This document shows, one piece after another, positions 1 to 11,332 of a DNA stretch of 64,000 nt. Each line of letters begins with the position of its first letter. Within the stretch, counting starts at the first letter, position 1. This DNA comes from a virus: IMG/VR virus record IMGVR_UViG_3300034019_000950, positions 1-64,000 of that record; one strand, written 5' to 3'. The notes below the pieces were generated by a model. The model had not been told where the DNA came from. It worked only from the letters and a program-made list of their open reading frames with translations, and searched no databases. Both the position numbers and the translations under genes were made by a program.

Positions 1-227
1 GGGCCGGGGGGGCGGGGTGGGCCGCCCCGCCTGCGGGGGGGGGCAGGGGGCAGGGGGGTGGGGGGTGGGGGCGGGGCGGGCGGCACCACCCCGGCACCAC
101 CCCCGCGCCACCCCTACAGCCGCCACAGGGGCGCTGCGCGGCCTGCGGCACGCTGCAAGGGGGTGCTGCAAAACGCCAACCCACAGGCCGTTGTTGAGAA
201 TTTTTAAGTTTTTTCCAGGCTGTTTGC

Positions 228-257
228 TTTACAGCCTAACCGCCCCCTTGTTACGCT
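228..257 (+). promoter_or_regulatory. early sigma70-like promoter with TAAC-N9-GTTA dyad
   Basis: TTTACA-18bp-TACGCT; TAAC 237-240, GTTA 250-253; same architecture recurs about 10 times upstream of + strand genes. Confidence 0.7.
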
Positions 258-342
258 GCTGGCATGCAGGGCAGGCACCGGGCCGGCCGGCATAGGGGGG
301 CAACCCCCACCACCACAGCAGCAGCAGCAGGGTACAACCACA

Positions 343-1023
343 ATGGCCACCACCACCACCACCCCCGTCGCCACCACCACCACCACCCCCGCCGCCGCCG
401 CCACGGGCAAGGGCAAGGGCAAGGGCAAGGGCACCACCACCCCGGCCGCCACCAAGGCCAAGGCCGCCCGCGCCGCCGCCGCCACCCCGGCCCCGGCCCC
501 GGTTGCCGCCACCCCGGCCCCGGCCCCTGTGGCGGCCCCGGCCCCGGTGGACAGCCTGTTCTCGGCCCTGGCCCAGCTGGACACCCCCCCGGCCGCCACC
601 ACCCCCGCCACCACCCCCGCCACCACCACCCCGGTCGAGCAGGGCGGGTGGGCCACGGCCGCCGACTGGTCCGCCGCCACGGCCGCCTGGGCGCTGCTGG
701 CGCAGGTGGAAAATTCCGTCGCCGCCGCCACGGCCGCCCCGGCCGCCCCGGCCGCCCCCAAGGCGGCCCGGTGGGCGCGCAACCCCGGCGCCGGCACGGT
801 GGGCCAGCTGGCCGCCCTTATTGCGGCGGCGGGGGGGGGTGACACTGTCGTTCTCGACGCAGCGCTGCTGGCGGCCCACAACATTGCTGCCACGTGGCTG
901 AAAAACACCCCCGCCTTTACCCAGGCCGACGGGGTCCGCAACGTGGCTGCCCTGCAGTGCGGCTACAAGGTTGCTGCGTTCAAGCGCGGTGTGGCTATCA
1001 CCCTGGTGCGCGTGGCTGCGTAG
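343..1023 (+). CDS. hypothetical protein, Ala/Thr/Pro/Lys low-complexity N-terminus and globular C-terminus
   Basis: 226 aa ORF directly downstream of the conserved promoter; GC3-biased codons; C-terminal half has normal amino-acid complexity. Confidence 0.7.
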   Translation: MATTTTTPVATTTTTPAAAATGKGKGKGKGTTTPAATKAKAARAAAATPAPAPVAATPAPAPVAAPAPVDSLFSALAQLDTPPAATTPATTPATTTPVEQGGWATAADWSAATAAWALLAQVENSVAAATAAPAAPAAPKAARWARNPGAGTVGQLAALIAAAGGGDTVVLDAALLAAHNIAATWLKNTPAFTQADGVRNVAALQCGYKVAAFKRGVAITLVRVAA

Positions 1024-1149
1024 CCGCTGCACGGGTGGGGGGCGGCACGTAGCGCCCCCCAGCCCACCCCCACCTGCCCGCCCACCTGCCCGCCCGCTGC
1101 CTGCCCGGCTGCGCGGCGGGCCGCGCCTTTTGGCCCTGCCCGGCCGGGC

Positions 1150-3751
1150 TGCGCGGGGCCGGTGCACGGGGGGTGCACGGGGGGTGCACGGGCCGGGGCG
1201 CCTGCGGGGGGCGCGGGGCGCGGGGCACGGTGGGCGCGCCCACCCCCTGCTGCGCGCCGGGGCACCGGGGCGGGGTGGGCACGGTGCGCGGGGTGGGCAC
1301 GGTGCGCGGTGCCGGTGCGCGGGGGCCACGTGCGGCACGTGCGGCACGTGCGGCACGGGGGGGGCACGGGGGGCACGTGCGGCACGGTGCGCGGGCTGGC
1401 GCGGTGCGGGGCGCACGCTGGCGGGGCCACGTGCGGCAAGGGCCGCCACAGGCACAACGGGCAGCCTGTGGCGTGCGGGCGCCCACCCCTACCGTGTACC
1501 GGGCAGGCTGCCCGTTGTGCCTGCTACGGGCTGCACGGGGGGTGCATACCAGGGAGCAACCCTTGCCGCACGGGCTACGGGGGGTGGTGCAAGCTGGGCA
1601 CGGTGCGGACGGTGCGGACGGTGCGGACGGGAGCACGAGAGGCACCGTCAGCACGTGCGGCACCGGGAGGGGCACGGTCAGCACGTGCGGCACGGTGGAC
1701 GCGGTGAGCACGGTGCGGACGTTGGAGACGGGCTGGTGCAGGGTGGACACGGTGAACACGGAGCACGAGACACGGGCTGGTGCAGGGTGGACACGGTGCA
1801 CGGTGGGCACGGGACACGAGACACGGTGGGCACGGTGCACGGCGGACACGGTGCACGGTGCACGGTGGACGGTGGACGCGGTGCACGATGGACACGGTGG
1901 ACACCGGGGACACGGTGGGCACGGCGGACACGGTGCAGACGGTGGGCAGGATGGACACGGTGCAGACGGTGGGCACGGTGAGCACCGGGGACACGGTGCA
2001 AGGTGCAGACGGCGGACGCGATGGACGCGGTGCGGACGGTGGACACGACGCGGACGGTGGGCAGGATGGACACGGTGGGCACCGGGGACAACGGAGGCAC
2101 CGGGGACACGGTGGGCACGGTGGGCACGGTGGGCACGGGACACGGTGCAAGGTGCAGACGGTGGGCACGGTGGGCACGGTGCAAGGTGCAGACGGTGGAC
2201 ACGATGCACGATGGACACGGTGGGCACGGTGGACACGAGACACGGTGGACGCGGTGCAAGGTGCGGACGGTGGGCACGGTGCGCACCGGGGACACGGTGC
2301 ACGATGGACGCGGTGCGGACGGTGGGCAGGATGGACGCGGTGCAAGGTGCGGACGGTGGGCACCGGGGACACGGTGGGCGCCAGGGGCACGGTCAACATG
2401 TGAGACGCGATGGACGCAGTGCGCGCGGGGTGGACGGTGGACACGGGGCACAGTGGACACGGGGTACGGTGGACGCGGTGCTGGATGGACGCGGTGTGGA
2501 GGGCAGACACGATGGACGCGGTGAGCACGAGACACGGTGGGCACGATGGGGACGGAGCACGGGGCACAGTGGACACGGGGTACGGGGCACAGTGCGGACG
2601 ATGGACACGGGGCACGGGGCACGGTGCGGGATGGACACGGTGCGGGATGGACGCGGTGTGGACACGGGGTACGGTGGACACGGGGTACGGTGGACACGGG
2701 GTACGGTGGACACGGGGTACGGTGCGGACGATGGACACGGGGCAGGATGGAGATGGTGAGGACGGTGAGGACCGTGTGGACCGGCTGATGCACGATGGAC
2801 ACGTGGCACGATGGACGCGGTGTGGACGGCAGACACGATGGACGCGGTGCGGGATGGACACGGTGGACGCGGTGCACGGTGGACGCGGTGTACGGTGTGG
2901 ACGGTGGACACGGGGCAGGATGGTGAGGACCGTGTGGACCGGCCGATACACGATGGACACGGGGCAGGATGGACAAGGGGCAGGATGGACAAGGGGCAGG
3001 ATGGACGCGGTGTAGACGGTGGACACGGGCTGATGCAGGGTGGGGACGTGCGGCACCGGAGGCACCGGAGACACGGTGCAAGCTGGACACGCTGCATGCA
3101 CGATGGACACGGTGCAAGCTGGACACGGTGCACGGGCCACGGTGGACACGGTCCAAGCTGGACACGGTGCATGCACGATGGACACGGTGCAAGGCGCACG
3201 ATCGACGCGGTGTGGATGGCGGACACGGGGCAGGATGGACACGGTGCACGGTGCGCACGGTCAGCACGTGCAGCACGATGGACACGGGGCAGGATGGACA
3301 CGGGACAGGATGGACGCGGTGTAGACGGTGTGGACGGTGGGCACGGTGCAAGCTGGGCACGTGCGGCACCGGAGACACGGTGCACGGTGGACACGGTGCA
3401 AGCTGGACACGGTGTATGATCAGCACGGTGCAAGGTGGACACGGTGCACGGTGGGCACGGTGGGCGCGTGCGGCACCGGGGACAACGGAGGCGCCGGGGG
3501 GGCATCGACTGTAAGGGGACCCGACGCGCCTTACTTCCTCCGATGCGCTGTTCGCCATCTCCGATGCGCGGGGTGTGCTCATGCGGATCGTGCGGCATCC
3601 GGCGCCGGCATCAGCGAGGGGCTGCGCCGCGCACCCTACCCGGCACCGTGCACCCTACCCGGCACCGTGCACCCCTTGCACCGTGCACCCTACCCGGCAC
3701 CGTGCACCCCTTGCACCGTGCACCCCTTGCACCCTACCCGGCCGGGCCGGT
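1150..3751. repeat. non-coding simple-repeat array of 7-9 bp units
   Basis: Shuffled units GGTGGACAC, GGTGGGCAC, GATGGACAC, GGTGCAC, GGTGCGGAC; G-rich top strand to ~3480, then an inverted C-rich block (GCACCGTGCACCCC) at 3630-3740. Confidence 0.9.
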
Positions 3752-3861
3752 GAGGGGGTGTGCTTCGCCTGTTGCGGGCCGGTCCTACACTTGCTCTCGC
3801 CGCAACAAGGGCGGCCCGGCGCATGTTTTAGGAAAATACAGTAAAAGTGTGCGGCTACAGG

Positions 3862-3891
3862 TTGCGCCCCTAACATGTGCCCGGTTACGCT
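3862..3891 (+). promoter_or_regulatory. early promoter with TAAC-N9-GTTA dyad
   Basis: TTGCGC-18bp-TACGCT; TAAC 3871-3874, GTTA 3884-3887. Confidence 0.7.
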
Positions 3892-3947
3892 GTAAGCAAC
3901 GGGGCACGGTGCTCCGCTAAGCAACCCATTCCGCTACAGGTACTGCA

Positions 3948-4022
3948 ATGAACAACGCACTTGACATCGCCCTCGTCCTCAACCAGCTGCTCGCCGTTTC
4001 CCTTTTCTTCCTCGGCCTCTGA
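3948..4022 (+). CDS. 24-aa hydrophobic micropeptide MNNALDIALVLNQLLAVSLFFLGL
   Basis: Translated by hand; directly downstream of a promoter; paralogous to the adjacent ORF; C-ending codon bias like neighbouring genes. Confidence 0.6.
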   Translation: MNNALDIALVLNQLLAVSLFFLGL

Positions 4023-4023
4023 C

Positions 4024-4113
4024 ATGAACAACCGCATCGACGTCACCCTCGTCCTCCACAACCTCGCCGTGCTGCTCGCAACCCTTGCCATCCCGGCCAT
4101 CCTCGGCCTCTAA
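4024..4113 (+). CDS. 29-aa hydrophobic micropeptide MNNRIDVTLVLHNLAVLLATLAIPAILGL
   Basis: Starts 1 nt after the previous stop; shares MNNxxDxxLVL...LGL with it. Confidence 0.6.
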   Translation: MNNRIDVTLVLHNLAVLLATLAIPAILGL

Positions 4114-4136
4114 CCCACAACAGCAGGAAAGTCATC

Positions 4137-5189
4137 ATGCTTCACGCTAACACCGACATCTCCACCGTTACGTCCGGCCTCGCCTCCCTGGTGTGGTGGG
4201 ACTTCCACAACGTCCAGATCACTCCCTCCGACCTGCGCAGCCGGGTTGCGGCTGCTGGCTTCGACCCCTCCACCGTCAGCGACATTGAGCCGACCGACGC
4301 GGTGCGGCAGGCCGTCCGTTCCTTCCGCATCCACAACGCGGGGCGGGTCGTGATGGAGGCGGCGGTCGCGCACGAGGACCACACCGCGATGGTCATCAAC
4401 CTGCTCACCCTCACCCAGCAGGCCCGCGAGCGCGTGGCCAAGCTGCCCACCGACGAGCTGGTGTGGGACAAAATCGGCCGGGTTTGGCTCAGCGTTGGGT
4501 TGACCGCGGAAGCCGCCACGTTGCGCAATGAGGCGGCGGAACTGATGTCCTTCTACGACGGCAACAAGGTGCGCGAACACCTCGTCATGCCGGCCATCGA
4601 AGAATCCAAGGCATTCACTCTCAAGCGCGGCATGTACGTCGTTCCGCACGCGACTGCGGCGCCCATCGAGCGTGTCGCTGCGGCCCTCGCCGATCTCGAA
4701 ACGTTCAAGCTCCGCGTTGCCGTCGTCACCCCCAATCAGGGCTGGGAGGCGCCGCTGGCCGACGCCAGCCGGGCCGAGCTCCGCAACGACTTGCAGGAAC
4801 TGCAGGAACAGATCAACGGGTGGAAGAGCATGGCCAAGCGCGTCCGGTGCGACACGGTCGAAACGGTCATGGCCCGGTTCGCCAGCATCTCCGAGCGGGC
4901 CGCGCTTTACCGCGAAGCCCTGGCCATCAGCATCGAGGACATCGAGGCCGAGGTTCTGGACATGAAGAACATGGCCGAGGCCATCATCAACGACACTGCG
5001 CCCGCCCCGCGCAAGGAAGCGCCTGCGCCTGCGCCCGTCACCCCGCAGCAGGCGCGTCGCGCCGCCCTGCGCGCCATGAACGACGATCAGCTCAATACGC
5101 TGTGGGACGCGCTCGGCAACGGCGAGCAGCCCGCTGAGCGCGAGGCGCTGGTGGAGGCGATCGCTTCCGCAATGGAAGCCTCGCGGTAG
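4137..5189 (+). CDS. DUF6744-like helical protein with short C-terminal HEH/Rho-N-like domain
   Basis: 350 aa, RBS AGGA; N-terminal LVWW...L...GF...DAVRQAV pattern; coiled-coil C half; upstream of an AAA/vWA pair. Confidence 0.5.
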   Translation: MLHANTDISTVTSGLASLVWWDFHNVQITPSDLRSRVAAAGFDPSTVSDIEPTDAVRQAVRSFRIHNAGRVVMEAAVAHEDHTAMVINLLTLTQQARERVAKLPTDELVWDKIGRVWLSVGLTAEAATLRNEAAELMSFYDGNKVREHLVMPAIEESKAFTLKRGMYVVPHATAAPIERVAAALADLETFKLRVAVVTPNQGWEAPLADASRAELRNDLQELQEQINGWKSMAKRVRCDTVETVMARFASISERAALYREALAISIEDIEAEVLDMKNMAEAIINDTAPAPRKEAPAPAPVTPQQARRAALRAMNDDQLNTLWDALGNGEQPAEREALVEAIASAMEASR

Positions 5190-5203
5190 CTTCGCATCCC
5201 TAC

Positions 5204-5243
5204 GGTCCGCGTCGCCTGCTGGCGCGCGGACCTTTCCTTTTTT
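5204..5243 (+). terminator. intrinsic terminator
   Basis: GGTCCGCG...CGCGGACC hairpin followed by TTTCCTTTTTT. Confidence 0.75.
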
Positions 5244-5313
5244 ACGTGCAGCACGTTGGCGCATCTTCCCTTGATGAACCAAACTTTTTTGCAAGTTAGG
5301 CTGCGCGCAACCC

Positions 5314-5343
5314 TTGCAACGGTAACCGCGCACATGTTACGCT
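5314..5343 (+). promoter_or_regulatory. early promoter with TAAC-N9-GTTA dyad
   Basis: TTGCAA-18bp-TACGCT with extended -10 TG; TAAC 5323-5326, GTTA 5336-5339. Confidence 0.75.
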
Positions 5344-5378
5344 TACAGTGCAACGGGCAACGCCCAAGGAGAGCAAAG

Positions 5379-6506
5379 GTGACCACCACCACCATTCACA
5401 ACGCGCACGCCGACCTCACCACCCTTCGCGTCCAGATGAAAAACGCGTTCGTCGCCCGCGACGCCGAGATTGACGGGCTGCTGCTCGCGCTGCTGGCCCG
5501 CACGCACGTTCTGCTGCTGGGGCCTCCCGGAACCGCCAAGTCCCTGGTGACGCAGGTGTTCGCCAGCGCCCTGGGCGGCGACTACTTCCAGCGCCTGCTG
5601 ACCGCCTTCACCGCGCCCGAGGAGCTGTTCGGCCCGTATGACCTCAGCGCCCTCGACGCGGGCCGCTACGAGCGCGCTGTGCAGGGCTACCTGCCGACTG
5701 CCACCGTGGCGTTCTGCGACGAGGTGTTCAAGGCCAACAGTGCGATCCTCAACAGCCTGCTCACCGTGCTGAACGAGCGCCAGTTCGACAACGGCACCAC
5801 CCGGATGCAGCTGCCTCTGGAGCTGTGCGTCGGCGCCAGCAACGAGTACCCCGAGGACGCCAGCTTGGAGGCGCTCTACGACCGCTTCACCCTGCGCTAC
5901 TGGACGCAGTACGTGCCCACCCGCGCCGGGCGGCTCGCGCTGCTGACCGCCGCCGACCCCGCGCAGGTGGTGACGGCCAAGCTGGCGCCCGACGCGGTGC
6001 AGGTGCTGCAGCAGGCCGTTCGTGACGTGGTGGTGCCTCAGAGCGTTCTTGTCCTGCTGTGTGACGTCGCGGACAAGCTGGCTCAGGACAACGGCGTGGT
6101 GGTGAGCGACCGTCGCCTGCGCGGAATGGTGCGGCTGCTGCAGGCCAGCGCCGTTCTGGACGGGCGCGTCACCGTCACCGCGCGCGACTTGCTCGTGCTC
6201 GCGGACAGCGTGTGGCACCGTCACGATCAGCGCCCCGCCGTGCTCGCCACGGTGCTGTCGGTCGCCGCCCCAAAGCTCGCGGCCGCAATGAAACTGTCCG
6301 ACAGCGCGCGCGAGATCTACGACGCGGTCAAGGACGTCAGCAGCGACGGTGCTCGCGCCCTGCAGCGCATCAAGGCCGTTGAGGCGGAGCTGGTCAACAT
6401 GGGTCTTGACGACACCGACGTTCTCAACGCACACCTGTCCGTCGTCGAGCTGCGCAAGGGGCTGGCGCGTCGCTTCATGTCTGCCAGCGGGCTGGGCAAC
6501 GTGTAG
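5379..6506 (+). CDS. MoxR/RavA-family AAA+ ATPase
   Basis: Walker A GPPGTAKS, FCDEVFKANSAILNSLL, ASNE, ALYDRF, SDRR; GTG start after AGGAG. Confidence 0.92.
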   Translation: MTTTTIHNAHADLTTLRVQMKNAFVARDAEIDGLLLALLARTHVLLLGPPGTAKSLVTQVFASALGGDYFQRLLTAFTAPEELFGPYDLSALDAGRYERAVQGYLPTATVAFCDEVFKANSAILNSLLTVLNERQFDNGTTRMQLPLELCVGASNEYPEDASLEALYDRFTLRYWTQYVPTRAGRLALLTAADPAQVVTAKLAPDAVQVLQQAVRDVVVPQSVLVLLCDVADKLAQDNGVVVSDRRLRGMVRLLQASAVLDGRVTVTARDLLVLADSVWHRHDQRPAVLATVLSVAAPKLAAAMKLSDSAREIYDAVKDVSSDGARALQRIKAVEAELVNMGLDDTDVLNAHLSVVELRKGLARRFMSASGLGNV

Positions 6507-6527
6507 TCCTCCGCACCGCTCTGTCTG

Positions 6528-6557
6528 CACCCCCGCATCACCCTGCGGGGGTGTTTT
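6528..6557 (+). terminator. intrinsic terminator
   Basis: CACCCCCGCA/TGCGGGGGTG 10-bp stem followed by TTTT. Confidence 0.75.
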
Positions 6558-6583
6558 CGTCCAAAAAACCTTGCTGGCACAGC

Positions 6584-6613
6584 TTGCACTGCTAACCGGG
6601 CGCATGTTAGGTG
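6584..6613 (+). promoter_or_regulatory. early promoter with TAAC-N9-GTTA dyad
   Basis: TTGCAC; TAAC 6593-6596, GTTA 6606-6609; followed by a GA-less SD-like AAGGGGGG. Confidence 0.7.
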
Positions 6614-6638
6614 TACCTTGCACCGCAAGGGGGGCACA

Positions 6639-8102
6639 ATGGCCAACTTCACCACCACGAAACACGTCAATGCCACGCGCGATGTCTCGCGCTGGGCCGA
6701 CTACCTGTTCACCAGCCGCGCGTCCGCCAGCGCAAGTCTGTCATCGGCTCGTCGTGAGCTCAGCTTCGCATACAAGGCGCAGGGCGGCGGCTCCGACGTT
6801 GAGGATCGTCGCCTTGACGATCTCGCCACTGCAACGGCTCGCGAGGTGTTCGCCGGCCTTTACGACGAGAGCGAGGCGACCGTTCTCGACAAGCCCGCGC
6901 CCGACACTGAGCTGGTCACCCGCGTCCACGGGCAGCTGCAGCAGCTGCCCGAGTATGCTCAGCTGCAGGGGCAGGTTGCCGGCGATCCTGACCTCGCCGC
7001 TATCGCCACGGCTCGCCTTCTTTCCTCTGTTGCGGCTGCGCTGCCCAAAATGGCAAGTGAGGAACGGAAAAAGGCCCAGCAGGAAGCCAGCGGTGCACCT
7101 GTTCGCGGCCCGGCCGCCGACGCTGACGGCGTGCTTCGTCGCATGTTGCGCACGGCCTGCAATGACGCAGCGCAGGCTGCCGCCGAGGCGGCGGAAGGCA
7201 TGGAAGGGCTGGCCCCCGGCCTTGGCGAAGCTCCCGCTCAACATGCGCAACATGACGACGGCCGCATCAAGCTTGCGGAGCGTGTCAGCTCCGACGCGCG
7301 CCTGCGTCGGGTGATGAAGCTGGCGGGCCGCCTGCGCCGCCTTGCCAGCGACGGGCGCAAGGTGCGCGACGAGCTGGGCGCGGACACGCTGGTCGGCACG
7401 ACCATCGGCGGCGACCTTCCGCGCGCCCTGCCCACTGAGCTCGGCCTTTTGCGTCACGCTCGCCTGCGTCGCGTGCAGCTTGCCAAGCTGGCCGATCGCC
7501 GCCTGCAGCAGTATCACGTGGTCGGCAATATCCCCAAAGGTCGCGGTCCCATCATCGTTCTGCTTGACGAGTCCGGCAGCATGGAAGGGGATCGTAACCT
7601 GTGGGCTGCGGCCGTCGCGCTCGCCTGTATCGGCACCGCAGCCCGCGAGCGCCGCGCCTGCACGGTCATTGGATTCAATGGGTCGGTTCGCTACATCGTC
7701 CGCCTTGACACTCACGGCAAGGCGTGGCGTCACGACACCAGCAACGTCGCCAACGCGACTGCAATGGGCGCTTGTGCGGATCTCGCCCTGCACGTGGCCA
7801 GCAGCCGCCCCGATGGCGGCACGCAGTTCGCGCCACCCCTGCAGGCCGCACTGGATCTTGAGGACGGCGTGACCCGCGAGCGTGCCGACCTCGTGCTGGT
7901 CACCGACGGCCATGCCGAGGCGCCGGTTGACATTTTGCAGCGGCTGCAGCAAGCGAAACACGACGGGCTGCGTGTTTTCGGCCTGACTGTCGGTGGCGGG
8001 AGCCTTGGCGCTGCGGTGCGCAAGATCGCAGACCATATCGTTGACCTCGACGACGCAGCGGGGCGCAACGACGGCAAGGAAGTCGCCGGCGCCATTCCGT
8101 AG
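6639..8102 (+). CDS. vWA domain protein (ViaA-like partner of the AAA ATPase)
   Basis: MIDAS DESGSM, GGT and LVTDG; GPII-LLD motif; adjacent to RavA-like ATPase. Confidence 0.9.
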   Translation: MANFTTTKHVNATRDVSRWADYLFTSRASASASLSSARRELSFAYKAQGGGSDVEDRRLDDLATATAREVFAGLYDESEATVLDKPAPDTELVTRVHGQLQQLPEYAQLQGQVAGDPDLAAIATARLLSSVAAALPKMASEERKKAQQEASGAPVRGPAADADGVLRRMLRTACNDAAQAAAEAAEGMEGLAPGLGEAPAQHAQHDDGRIKLAERVSSDARLRRVMKLAGRLRRLASDGRKVRDELGADTLVGTTIGGDLPRALPTELGLLRHARLRRVQLAKLADRRLQQYHVVGNIPKGRGPIIVLLDESGSMEGDRNLWAAAVALACIGTAARERRACTVIGFNGSVRYIVRLDTHGKAWRHDTSNVANATAMGACADLALHVASSRPDGGTQFAPPLQAALDLEDGVTRERADLVLVTDGHAEAPVDILQRLQQAKHDGLRVFGLTVGGGSLGAAVRKIADHIVDLDDAAGRNDGKEVAGAIP

Positions 8103-8254: not shown

Positions 8255-8689
8255 ATGGAACCACTCGCCGCACTGCTCAACTTGTGGGCTTACCTTCGCG
8301 CCGCGCATCACCTCTACTGGACGCTTCACTGGCAGGCACGTGGTCCCTCCTTTTATGGTGATCATCAGCTGTTTGCGGAGCTGTATGAAGCACGTGTTGG
8401 TGAGATTGATCAGGTCGCAGAGCTTGTGGCCGGACACTACGGGTCTGACAAGCTTGATCCGATTGCAGCATGGAAGGCTGCCGTCCCCGTTGTGGAGGCG
8501 ATGCTGTCAGGATCTTCGCCCACGATCATCGCTCAACTTGTGGTCGCAGCGGCCGAGGAAGCAAACACGGCATGTGCGGAAGGACCTGCACCGGCATCTA
8601 CTCAGAACGTCGTCGCTGACATCGGCAGCGCACACGTGAAAGCACTCTATCTACTACAACAACGGTTCGGCCGGGCGACGAGCAAGTGA
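8255..8689 (+). CDS. Dps/ferritin-like protein
   Basis: HWQARGPSFYGDHQLFAELY...IDQVAE matches the Dps ferroxidase signature; RBS GGAGG. Confidence 0.8.
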   Translation: MEPLAALLNLWAYLRAAHHLYWTLHWQARGPSFYGDHQLFAELYEARVGEIDQVAELVAGHYGSDKLDPIAAWKAAVPVVEAMLSGSSPTIIAQLVVAAAEEANTACAEGPAPASTQNVVADIGSAHVKALYLLQQRFGRATSK

Positions 8690-9156
8690 GCCAGTCGTTA
8701 GCAGCACCAGCATGGAACATGGAAGCGGACGTTGTGCCGCATCCTGCGCACGTAGAGCCGACTGTCGCCATTCCTCAACCTACTGCGGCTGCACGTGCTT
8801 ATCCAAGCCTGTATGACTCCGAGGGCGGCACCCTGCTCGCCATCACCCTTTGCATTGCCATCATCGGCGGTGTGCTGTGGTCGGTAGCTCGCATCTACCA
8901 GCGCAGCCGTGATGAACACGCTGCGCTGACGCAGTTCGTAACAACGATGGTCGCCCTTGTGGTGGGCGCGTTCATTGCGGACCTGCTGGTTGCTGGTCCA
9001 GACACGAGCCTGCTTGCAGACAACGATCACACAAGCATCCTTGCCTTCGTCAAGGACACGTGCCTGATGGTGTTCAGCTACTACTTTGGAACACGCGCTG
9101 TGCCACCTCCGCAGGCTCCACTTCCCTCAGCTGACCCAGGTGCGGAGGCTTCTTGA
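8686..9156 (+). CDS. putative holin
   Basis: 2-3 hydrophobic segments, FSYYFG motif, immediately upstream of the endolysin. Confidence 0.6.
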   Translation: MSQSLAAPAWNMEADVVPHPAHVEPTVAIPQPTAAARAYPSLYDSEGGTLLAITLCIAIIGGVLWSVARIYQRSRDEHAALTQFVTTMVALVVGAFIADLLVAGPDTSLLADNDHTSILAFVKDTCLMVFSYYFGTRAVPPPQAPLPSADPGAEAS

Positions 9157-9959
9157 CTACGCCTTTGACGCTTGTACGTGTGGATGCGTCTATTCTGTCC
9201 AGCTATGGCCGATCTGGCGGAACAGGCGGTCAACGTGCCAATCTCCGTCCTCTTGCCCAGCTTGGACACGCTGGCTTCGCCACACCGGACACTGCTTCTG
9301 CTCTACTGGCGCTGAACGACGTAGTGCTGGCTGCTGGCGGCGACTTTCGCGTAACCGAGCTGCACCGCGACGTGGCCACGCAGCAGAAAGCGCGTATTCG
9401 CTACGATCGGTGGGTTGCCGCTGGCAAGCCGGCACCCGGTTCACCCGGCTTCGACAGCGCAACCATGAAGCCTGCATTCGTTGCAGTGCCGGGCCGGTCA
9501 ATGCACAACGCAGGGCGCGCCATCGACGTTGACCTGAGCGCACTGCGGTTCCCCGGCGTGCCTGCTGACCGGCAGCTGGACCGGCTGTGGGATCTTGCGC
9601 GCCCGCTGGGCTGGGCGCCTGTGATCCGCGCGCCGGACGAACGAGCAAGCGAAGCGTGGCATCTTGACTACTGGGGCGAACTGAAAGGCGTGCTGGCACG
9701 GCTGGGCTACGCTCAGGCTGCATTCGCGGGCGCGCTTTTGGTCGGGCACGCTGGCAACGGAACCAGCTGGGCGAGCATCACACAGGCACTCCTTGCACGT
9801 GCTGGCTATGACCTTGGTGAGATTGACGGCCTGTGGGGCGAGCGTTCCAGGCTTGCGCTAAGCACTGCGCTTGACGTTTCATCCAACGATGCAGTGAGCC
9901 TTGCACTGCGTAGTGATGAAACCATCTGGCCGCGACTGCTTGCACTCACGCCAGGATGA
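9153..9959 (+). CDS. endolysin, M15 peptidase with peptidoglycan-binding domain
   Basis: SMHNAGRAID and EAWH zinc motifs; C-terminal QALLARAGY..GEIDGLWG PG-binding motif. Confidence 0.85.
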   Translation: MTTPLTLVRVDASILSSYGRSGGTGGQRANLRPLAQLGHAGFATPDTASALLALNDVVLAAGGDFRVTELHRDVATQQKARIRYDRWVAAGKPAPGSPGFDSATMKPAFVAVPGRSMHNAGRAIDVDLSALRFPGVPADRQLDRLWDLARPLGWAPVIRAPDERASEAWHLDYWGELKGVLARLGYAQAAFAGALLVGHAGNGTSWASITQALLARAGYDLGEIDGLWGERSRLALSTALDVSSNDAVSLALRSDETIWPRLLALTPG

Positions 9960-9970
9960 TTGAGGTGCGT

Positions 9971-10381
9971 ATGGAACCTGTCTCACTGACCGCGATTGCC
10001 GTGATTGTTGCGCTTGCAGCTGGTTTTGGAGCCGGATGGGGGTTGAGGCCCGACAGCGCCGCGGAAGCACTGGCGGCACAGGCTGACGTTCTGGACGCGC
10101 AAGGTAAGACGCTGGCTGCCTTGCAGGCCGGACAAACTCAGCTTGTGGAAGCATCCAATCGTCCTGTCGTGCTTGATGCTGAGCTGCGGAGTGAGCTTGC
10201 ACGTGTGCCAGTGCAGTGTCGTCGGGATGCGGGCGGCAATCCACGAAGTGCCGAGTGCGCCTGGGCTACATGCCTGCAGTTCGGCCAATCATCATCTCAA
10301 CGACCTGAGTGTCGTGCTATCGAGGCATTGATGGTGCAGGCATTGCAAGGCGATGCGTGCGATCAGTCCAAAAAGCCGTAG
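9971..10381 (+). CDS. membrane-anchored protein, possible spanin
   Basis: N-terminal TM helix, coiled coil, Cys-rich tail; last gene of lysis cassette. Confidence 0.45.
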   Translation: MEPVSLTAIAVIVALAAGFGAGWGLRPDSAAEALAAQADVLDAQGKTLAALQAGQTQLVEASNRPVVLDAELRSELARVPVQCRRDAGGNPRSAECAWATCLQFGQSSSQRPECRAIEALMVQALQGDACDQSKKP

Positions 10382-10624
10382 GAAGTCGTCTTTTTGACGA
10401 TTTGTGTATGTATAGGGGTGGTGGACGGGCTGCTACAAGGCCCGTGCGGGGGCTATGGGGCGCTGCTGGCCCATAGGGCGGGCTGCAGGCCCTGCAAGCC
10501 GGTATGCAGGCCACAAGGGGGCATATTGCGCACCGTTTAGGGCCTGCGGGGGCCTGCGGGGGCCTGCTTACCCCATACAACAGCGCGTATGGGTTAGGGG
10601 GTGGATGAAAATGGTGAGGTAGAC

Positions 10625-11332
10625 GTGCGTTTCCTGCTGAGTGGTGGTTCTGGACGTCTTGGAAGGCTCTTTGTGCCGTGGTTGGAACAACAGGGCCACG
10701 AAGCATTCGCTCCTTCACGTGCTGCCTTGGATTGGTCGTGTCCAGATAGTGTGATGGCCGCCGTCACCGCCCAAAAACCCGACCGCATCGTGATGCTGGC
10801 GGCATGGACGGACGTGAGCGGAGCACAGGCACAGCCAGCCGCCTGCGTGCGGGACACGGTGCTGACAACACAGCATGCAATCGCCGCCGCGAAAGCCAAC
10901 AGTGTCTCGTTACTGTACGTGAGCACTGACTACGTGCACGCAGTTCTCCGACAGGACACGGCTGGCGTTTATGCAGCTGCAAAGCTCGTCGCAGAGCAGA
11001 TGGTTCTACTTGCGAACGGACACGTGGCCCGCGTTGCCTTCACCACCCCGGAACAAGTGGCTGAGTGGAGATGGGTCAACGACTACAGCAAGGCCAACAG
11101 GTGCTGGGTTGAGGATCTGATCCCAATGCTCGGCCTCTGGGCGTCCTTTCCAACTCACCAGCTACAACAGCTGGTGAACCTGGGTGGCCCACACCCTGTC
11201 ACGCCTGCGGAGCTTCTGGCAAGCCGCCATCCTGATCATCCAGCACTGAGGCGCGTGATTGCTTCGCAAGCGGAAGCAATCGCAATCGGTCTGCCAGCAC
11301 AGCCTCACGATACTTGTTGGAGGAAACTATAA
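10625..11332 (+). CDS. rmlD: dTDP-4-dehydrorhamnose reductase-like SDR
   Basis: GGSGRLG, AAWTDV, STDYV, YAAAK. Confidence 0.8.
   Translation: MRFLLSGGSGRLGRLFVPWLEQQGHEAFAPSRAALDWSCPDSVMAAVTAQKPDRIVMLAAWTDVSGAQAQPAACVRDTVLTTQHAIAAAKANSVSLLYVSTDYVHAVLRQDTAGVYAAAKLVAEQMVLLANGHVARVAFTTPEQVAEWRWVNDYSKANRCWVEDLIPMLGLWASFPTHQLQQLVNLGGPHPVTPAELLASRHPDHPALRRVIASQAEAIAIGLPAQPHDTCWRKL

Follow-up and report, generated by a model that had tools for sequence, protein, structure and literature searches.

A strand-asymmetric array of 7- and 9-nucleotide repeats in a lake-water phage as a probable case of tolerated minisatellite expansion

The left end of the phage contig IMGVR_UViG_3300034019_000950 raises the question of what a compact phage might do with a kilobase-long, strand-asymmetric repeat array lying in a non-coding zone. 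The window analysed here comprises bases 1-64000 of this single 79,355-bp virus contig (G000 where it has to be told apart from its relatives), which comes from lake-water metagenomes, and the array in it consists of about 2.3 kb of 7- and 9-base units arranged head-to-tail, followed by a short inverted block. A first-pass annotation had proposed that it might be a replication origin, a packaging or terminus signal, a ParB-N loading array or a protein sponge. The array was found to be real, non-coding, built of 7/9 units and absent from related phages, with a vocabulary in common with a hairpin in the early leader of those relatives. We infer from this both that it arose by slippage and that it lacks a function, so that the array is most likely a lineage-specific non-coding minisatellite, a repeat expansion which is tolerated and has no sequence-specific role, although our confidence in this reading is no more than moderate.

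Across 24 lake-water metagenome runs, a fraction of 0.89-0.98 of the sampled words of bases 1-8000 was present, and Logan contigs from 4 runs tiled positions 445-3672 with 0 differing letters. Because these contigs were identical between the 4 runs, at about the depth of the flank (6.9-10.7 in the array versus 11.6 in the flank for X1, and 24-50 versus 37.7 for X13), a chimeric or collapsed multi-copy artefact is excluded and the array is real at the k-mer and contig level. The contigs break at identical repeat junctions in each run, and the total length and the order of units rest on the original assembly. The last 166 nt of the array were identical in a diverged strain whose flanks carry single nucleotide polymorphisms, while a strain contig (L055, protein 99% identical) has the same array end with one 35-nt unit fewer in the inverted block, and indels were seen in minor contigs at 3717/3718.

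That the array might after all be an artefact of assembly, or else encode a repetitive protein, is suggested by the breaking of contigs inside it and by the presence of minus-strand open frames of 634 and 555 amino acids, but single-copy depth in 4 runs speaks against the first possibility and the unit lengths speak against the second, and we consider either extremely improbable. The top strand of the array is almost without TC, CT and TT, and it is the near absence of TTA, CTA and TCA that keeps the long minus-strand frames open; their translations are a mixture of HRV, PCP and TVS frames. A coding array was rejected since units of 7 and 9 nt keep no frame, the mixture of the two breaking every reading frame, and so the initial description of the array as non-coding stands, with translation not plausible.

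Within the core of the array, 95 distinct unit forms were found among 181 parsed units. Distances between ACG anchors were most often 9 (59 times), 7 (41), 16 (19) or 18 (12), and autocorrelation peaked only at 7, 9, 16, 18, 23, 25, 27, 32 and 34, all of which are sums of 7 and 9, with values at 5, 8 and 10 equal to background. Tandem Repeats Finder (TRF) reported periods of 7, 9, 16 and 25 over 1691-3414, and there are perfect local re-amplifications, such as a 16-mer present in 4 copies at 2661-2724. With a detectable period, head-to-tail units, no plausible translation, a copy number that differs between strains and a presence that varies among relatives, the array is a minisatellite or variable-number tandem repeat.

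Non-coding minisatellites and short tandemly repeated sequences are familiar from bacteria and phages, the short tandemly repeated repetitive (STRR) heptamers of cyanobacteria being an example. The array resembles these in being intergenic, in its degenerate head-to-tail units of 7-9 nt with locally re-amplified blocks, in differing in copy number between strains, in being confined to one lineage and in containing no gene, RNA family or promoter. It differs from minisatellites such as STRR in being larger (about 2.3 kb plus the inverted block), in its strict mixture of two unit lengths and in that its vocabulary is traceable to a neighbouring conserved regulatory hairpin.

The strand asymmetry of the core is strong. 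Dinucleotide counts in 1600-3480 gave 175 GA on the top strand (174 expected) and only 7 TC (46 expected), and CC (20 against 99 expected), AA (17 against 74) and TT (1 against 21) were also scarce in a sequence that is 46% G and 23% C, with a GC content of 0.67-0.72 throughout. The words GGACAC (47 copies), GATGGAC (28) and CACGGTG (51) are all present in one orientation only, their reverse complements occurring 0 times in the core, and CACCGTG occurs 5 times in 3618-3751. CACGGTG is an interrupted palindrome (CAC-N-GTG), and CACNGTG reaches 28.7 per kb in the core compared to 0.71 per kb elsewhere, a 40-fold enrichment. GC skew was +0.22 to +0.44 and AT skew positive over approximately 1600-3500, with the sign reversed over 3500-3800. 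The strand bias exists because an asymmetric unit has been copied head-to-tail.

The core is bracketed by flanks with neither GA nor TC, in 1000-1553 (about 20 of each expected) and in 3618-3751 (4 and 8.5 expected), which lie within GA/TC-free stretches of 998-1554 and 3616-3752; the former, at 556 nt, is the longest such run in the 79,355-bp genome. The first-pass description of GA-free flanks around a GA-dense core with few TC, its quoted words and the strand asymmetry that it noted were thus all confirmed. Its start at 1000 was right for the GA-free zone and not for the repeats, as 1000-1023 is the end of the open reading frame (ORF) 343-1023 and the repeats run from about 1140 onward. GA and TC are, however, depleted throughout the clade, in 5 of 5 related genomes (G001-G005; observed/expected 0.70-0.86, compared to 0.96-1.11 for AG/CT), GA/TC-free runs of 130-170 nt occur in 4 of the 5, G004 among them, and other intergenic or low-complexity stretches of the present phage contain such runs of 140-207 nt (AG/CT-free runs reach a maximum of 81 nt outside the array). 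As GA/TC-free runs are common both in the other non-coding stretches of the phage and in its clade, the GA-free flanks are the normal non-coding style of this clade and nothing special, and the core is exceptional only in carrying GA at the expected level.

Relatives of the phage were reached through homologues of the DUF6744-like protein encoded just downstream, which are 48-65% identical to it. One related genome, G004 (74,873 bp, complete and circular by a 127-bp end overlap), shares nearly all genes at 60-94% amino acid identity, including those for the major capsid protein (MCP, 94%), TerL (90%), the primase-helicase (86%), the portal (82%) and the ParB_N protein (71%), and yet in the whole of G004 there was no window with an absolute GC skew of at least 0.25 and no non-coding tandem array. 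The equivalent slot in G004, at 3.3-6.9 kb, is occupied by four small genes, each with its own promoter of the dyad type described below. No array was found at any of 8 distinct related loci (G004 and 7 others), in which the orthologous early promoter is preceded by 2-10 kb of ordinary composition, holding ordinary genes at the 7 further loci. A search of IMG/VR with a CACGGTG-triplet pattern likewise found no array, only matches of 3-6 copies that were mostly of coding type. The early block 4137-35346 is inverted relative to G004 8290-34699, and the array sits at the rearranged junction.

It was noted in the same comparison that the block of lysis and sugar genes at 8686-11332 is placed differently than in G004, nearly all of whose genes are on one strand. 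G002 (IMGVR_UViG_3300032240_001128) has a 150-bp tandem repeat of 3.3 copies at 6009-6496.

The relatives bear directly on the proposal that the array is a replication origin, a packaging or terminus signal or a ParB-N loading array. Such roles would suit its position in a large non-coding zone between divergent transcription units, and CACGTG, the core of parS, recurs 5 times in the left zone. They are nevertheless unlikely, in our view very much so, because the array is missing from phages whose replication, packaging and ParB-N proteins are the same. G004, in which the replication genes are 72-86% identical to those of the present phage, has no array, which leaves the origin proposal unsupported, and the packaging proposal fares no better given the 90% identity of TerL in G004 and the 81% in the likewise array-less G002. 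The sole ParB_N protein of the phage (27043-27297) has a homologue in G004. The array is therefore, as far as these comparisons can tell, dispensable for replication, for packaging and for ParB-linked DNA modification. An iteron origin was rejected separately, as it calls for regular phasing and an AT-rich unwinding element and the array has irregular 7/9 spacing and is GC-rich throughout. A ParB/parS or plasmid-type centromere was also rejected, since a 16-bp parS-like palindrome, an AAA_31 ParA gene and an RHH_1 gene are all absent and parS is matched only at its 6-bp CACGTG centre.

The vocabulary of the array appears to have its source in the neighbouring early promoter. A dyad, TAAC-N9-GTTA, has 10 sites in the window (at 237, 3871, 5323, 6593, 11360, 12281, 14846, 24714, 32014 and 50633), compared to 1 for a reversed-pattern control, and 12 in G004. 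Nearly all of these sites have an A/T-rich stretch and TTGC(A/G)C before them and a gene start after them, so that the dyad looks like a promoter/operator family common to this phage group. Dyads flank the array at 237 and 3871, and there are none inside 1024-3860, even when up to 2 mismatches are allowed. In 6 relatives (L033:9905-9945, L030, L031, L032, L057 and L060) the first early promoter, upstream of the DUF6744-like gene, is directly followed by CACGGTGC-N4(-6)-GCACCG and then by AGTCAGCAACC, with AGUCAGCAACC as the conserved box after the hairpin. The 6 stem pairs of this hairpin, CGGUGC/GCACCG, are kept in all 6 relatives, with two pairs changed on both sides in one of them (CGACGC/GCGTCG) and a G-U pair in another. 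The leader hairpin is a candidate nut-like or processing element.

The early-leader RNA hairpins known as nut boxB in lambdoid phages are the nearest parallel to this seed element, to which alone the analogy applies. As in nut boxB, a short conserved stem-loop with a conserved single-stranded box lies directly 3' of the early promoter, and compensatory changes are seen in the hairpin of the relatives. Unlike nut boxB, it came with no sign of antitermination or of an N-like protein, and the present phage has no intact hairpin.

Indeed, no copy of the intact leader hairpin was found anywhere in G000, but its leader (the counterpart window being 3888-3930) still contains GGGGCACGGTGC, and this can be aligned with GCAAGCTGGGCACGGTGC, the first core unit. 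A local alignment of the leader element AGCAACGGGGCACGGTGC with this unit scored 24, compared to a mean of 14.6 (standard deviation 2.2, maximum 23) for shuffles. With 26 copies, the left arm CACGGTGC ranks among the most frequent 8-mers in the core, and the right arm GCACCGTG occurs 5 times in the inverted block. To judge by these matches, the leader hairpin CGGUGC-N4-GCACCG of the relatives has the repeat word CACGGTGC as its left arm. The features of the locus are collected in Table 1.

Table 1. Coordinates of the array, its parts and its neighbours in the window
Feature	Position	Strand	Details
C-rich lead-in	1024-1140		CCCACCTGCCCG, 3 copies (TRF)
Left zone of GA/TC-free, G-cluster-rich repeats	1140-1445	+	GGTGCACGGGG, 3 copies; GCGGGGTGGGCACGGTGC, 2 copies; CACGTGCGG, 5 copies
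Perfect 20-bp inverted repeat with 35-nt spacer	1449-1523		CAGGCACAACGGGCAGCCTG and its complement
First core unit, GCAAGCTGGGCACGGTGC	1589-1606	+	Aligns with early-leader element 3896-3912
Core of about 160 degenerate units of ACGGTGC (7 nt) and ACGGTGGRC (9 nt)	1600-3480	+	Single orientation
Unique 137-bp spacer of ordinary composition	3481-3617		Loop of a long imperfect hairpin between core end and inverted block
Inverted GA/TC-free block	3618-3751	-	GCACCGTGCACCC-type units; 35-nt super-unit, 2.4 copies
Early promoter (TTGCGC, then TAAC-N9-GTTA dyad) and leader element AGCAACGGGGCACGGTGC	3861-3912	+	Probable seed of the repeat vocabulary
Upstream ORFan, 226 amino acids	343-1023	+	Thr/Pro/Ala-rich N-terminus; context, outside the array

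These observations suggest a course of events in which the short palindromic leader element of the first early operon, by way of its arm CACGGTGC, would have seeded a tandem duplication. Replication slippage and unequal exchange may then have amplified the left-arm words into the 2.3-kb head-to-tail 7/9 array and the right-arm words into the short inverted block, all of this at the rearranged junction noted in the comparison with G004. The strand asymmetry, the GA-rich core (through GGGC to GGAC unit variants) and the GA-free flanks would then follow from the copying of a unit that is itself asymmetric, and the array would at most serve to space the early promoter away from the upstream ORFan. 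Slippage appears to be ongoing, to judge by the perfect local re-amplifications and by the two strains that differ by a 35-nt unit. The lack of any functional signature (no Rfam match, promoter, terminator, ParA or RHH gene) further supports a tolerated expansion.

Several points weigh against this reading. It is uncommon for 3% of a phage genome to be DNA without use, and the array is not visibly unstable, being letter-identical in the 4 runs and the same over its last 166 nt in the diverged strain. Its restricted vocabulary and sharp 7/9 quantisation could mean constraint rather than youth, and its likeness to a conserved regulatory hairpin would also suit a decoy. If the reading is correct its lesson is mainly one of caution, in that a compact phage may carry a conspicuous strand-asymmetric array of kilobase length which is no origin, packaging site or protein-loading site, while the tracing of its vocabulary to an early-leader hairpin would provide a concrete example of a palindromic regulatory element seeding a large minisatellite. 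The comparison with relatives also brings out two real regulatory elements of an uncultured phage group, namely the leader hairpin, with its stem kept by compensatory changes, and the family of promoter dyads.

The sponge that was proposed at the outset deserves the most attention among the alternatives, although we think it unlikely. As a decoy, the array DNA or a read-through RNA, with approximately 130 copies or near-copies of the leader element, would titrate whatever reads that element, whether this is a defence sensor, a regulator of the phage or a host factor for RNA binding or processing, and so tune early expression or blunt the host response. This would be in keeping with a unit equal to one arm of a hairpin which the relatives conserve, through compensatory changes, in their early leader, as well as with the 40-fold enrichment of the interrupted palindrome CACNGTG, the identity of the sequence across samples and the position of the array in a variable early region where G004 has small accessory genes. 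RNA from the top strand of 1800-2400 is also far more self-complementary than shuffles (z -8.7), because the interrupted palindrome CACGGTG is so frequent, while that from the bottom strand is unremarkable (z -2.0). Against a decoy, scans of the array for sigma-70-like promoters and for terminators gave 0 and 0, so that neither brackets it, the half-sites, without exception direct repeats, are irregularly spaced by 7/9 and are unsuited to a symmetric dimer or a regular filament, and the relatives manage without an array. No candidate binder was found either, the ORFan having no recognisable fold and searches for ParA (AAA_31) and RHH_1 genes having found none in the phage. A still more doubtful form of this idea is a working high-capacity decoy in which the single leader hairpin has been lost and the approximately 130 arm copies soak up the hairpin-reading factor instead. 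Were a decoy to be confirmed, the phage would have arrived at counter-defence or early-gene control by the expansion of non-coding repeats.

Two kinds of known titration or binding array may be compared with it. Sponge RNAs of the CsrB/RsmZ type titrate a protein, and the array is like them in having many GGA words on one strand (119 GGA, with CAGGATGG occurring 11 times), but differs in that it has no promoter, terminator or Rfam match, and no regular display of GGA in hairpin loops was seen. A search of the array with the covariance models of Rfam 15 (E up to 1) gave no match at or above gathering score, with two sub-threshold microRNA models falling on the 20-bp inverted repeat at 26 bits, compared to gathering scores of 60 and 82. 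Arrays of sub-sites for ribbon-helix-helix (RHH) proteins, such as the omega heptads of pSM19035, the met-boxes of MetJ and the ParG/ParR centromeres, have 2-20 sites at fixed spacing and a cognate RHH gene, plus ParA in the case of centromeres. The present array shares with them contiguous sub-sites of 7-9 bp in direct and inverted orientation, and differs in its approximately 130 sites, its mixed spacing and the lack of an RHH_1 or ParA-type gene.

A structural role coupled to transcription was also considered, and here we would put the chances lower than those of a decoy in general. Read-through from the promoter at 237 would yield an RNA rich in G, engaged with the C-rich template in stable R-loops or G-quadruplex hybrids, initiated by the G clusters at 1140-1440 and extended by the G-dense core in a manner like that of class switching, and what results could be a recombination hot spot or a primer, or else a roadblock or insulator. 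The orientation is suitable, since G makes up 46% of the strand that is non-template in rightward transcription, the left zone has G runs of 4-8, two-tetrad G-quadruplex motifs number 50 on the top strand compared to 0 on the bottom, and there is a weak terminator after ORF 343-1023. This last is a GC hairpin followed by CTTTT at approximately 1113-1135 in the lead-in, a candidate found by eye which was not called in the terminator scan and folds no better than shuffles. A simple R-loop rule set, however, fires throughout these genomes of 64-72% GC and does not discriminate, the core as single-stranded DNA folds no better than shuffles (z +0.9), and relatives with the same replication genes have no array.

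The inverted repeat at 1449-1523 gave an RNA fold of -55.7 kcal/mol (z -4.7), and no copy of CAGGCACAACGGGCAGCCTG was found elsewhere in the genome or in relatives. The end of the core can pair with the inverted block (inverted pairs I1-I11), with a fold of 3330-3790 at z -2.5. No copy of the spacer between them was found elsewhere, and a unique 24-mer from it had no match in a search for DNA relatives.

Another thought is that the array might lie near a genome end and stop DNA injection in the manner of the iss region of T5, the ORFan end entering first and the block of repeats and palindromes pausing DNA entry. The locus does present kilobase-scale non-coding repeats and inverted repeats after a single promoter-equipped gene near the left end of the contig, and iss of T5 lies within a 1662-bp non-coding region full of repeats and palindromes (Davison, bioRxiv 10.1101/866236). 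That region, however, is conserved in its order in 25 T5-like relatives, lies in the terminal repeat and has paired DnaA boxes (10.1101/866236), unlike the present array, which is absent from relatives and shows no doubled depth indicating a terminal repeat. Logan contigs run past position 1, and IMG/VR lists the contig as linear with no end repeats (with a CheckV completeness of 100%). A test for DnaA boxes (TGTGGACAA, up to 1 mismatch) gave 1 match in the array and a whole-window count equal to chance. Injection stopping therefore seems to us as improbable as the origin, packaging and ParB roles.

The array was also compared with the vrRNAs of VIPR systems, which have units of approximately 100 nt with 9-16 YNNGG pentamers and a conserved tail, in arrays defined as alternating GGY/NN pentamers next to a Vipr (RAMP/Cas7-like) gene (bioRxiv 10.64898/2026.04.26.720920). 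Both are G-rich, strand-asymmetric, non-coding phage repeat tracts beside a small gene, but the present array has no 5-nt period and no tail modules, and its tract is about 20 times longer. A VIPR vrRNA array was rejected, the autocorrelation of GGY being 1.2 at a lag of 5 compared to 3.3 at a lag of 9, and base identity at a lag of 5 being 0.26, which is background.

The first-pass annotation had further reasoned that, if thymine were modified in a TC context, the core would be densely modified on one strand only, and under such a hypothetical rule its arithmetic is correct, for an NTC rule would give 175 target thymines on the bottom strand and 7 on the top. One characterised ParB-dependent enzyme prefers NTG, and under an NTG rule the strands would be alike (181 versus 170 TG). 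Of the thymines in the top strand of the array, 90% are in a TG context, whereas about half of those in the bottom strand are in a TC context, and the array is therefore a natural test piece for the sequence rule of the thymine hypermodification of this phage. If that modification is context-specific, and if the array is a decoy, it would also be a uniquely modified landmark. The depletion of GA and TC does not obviously track the 27.8-32.4 kb part of the modification operon, since in G004 it is as strong or stronger and tblastn found no match there to this segment of the phage.

Upstream of the array, in the same non-coding zone, lies ORF 343-1023, the product of which has a low-complexity N-terminus (TTTTTP / GKGKGKGK / APAP) and a helical C-terminal 100 residues; a single-sequence AlphaFold2 model of the C-terminal 102 residues was all-helical with a pLDDT of 60. 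It had no Pfam or PHROG match, its sole match among 5.8 billion proteins was itself, with no Atlas match, and tblastn found nothing in relatives, suggesting that this ORFan, like the array, is found only in the present phage.

Genes of the phage run rightward from approximately 3.9 to 35 kb and leftward from approximately 78.5 to 36 kb. Its terminase is of the GpA type, with a TerL only about 30% identical to SPO1-like terminases. No cultured relatives of the phage were found, nor of the flanking protein in cultured phages, and a search of a phage collection gave no match at the DNA level. The MCP profile had a single match among 185,579 species genomes, at 34% in an unclassified metagenome-assembled genome. 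An ORF that follows the VanY-like endolysin gene in G004 (L033:8723-9115) combines a hydrophobic segment at the N-terminus with a coiled region rich in Ala and Gln, and is spanin-like by eye, which hints at a Gram-negative host.

The words of the array were neither over-represented nor skewed outside it, giving no indication of Chi-like elements. The E. coli Chi word itself, GCTGGTGG, has 25 occurrences on the coding strand compared to 4 on the template strand in 4137-35346 and genome positions 38093-78469 (6 for a reversed control), a bias that probably comes from CTG-GTG codon pairs, with a polarity that flips with gene orientation. At the other end of the genome, the non-coding region 78,470-78,770 (L029:16470-16770) contains GCGCGGGT repeats, A-runs and an inverted repeat of a C-run and a G-run (78,660-78,675 / 78,723-78,738). 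By eye it resembles G004 3330-3650 and the end of G002, although blastn gave no match. The long Logan contig of one run appears to end near 78,770, and the G002 contig ends in a seemingly equivalent region, so this may be a packaging or control site, or merely a sequence that breaks assemblies.

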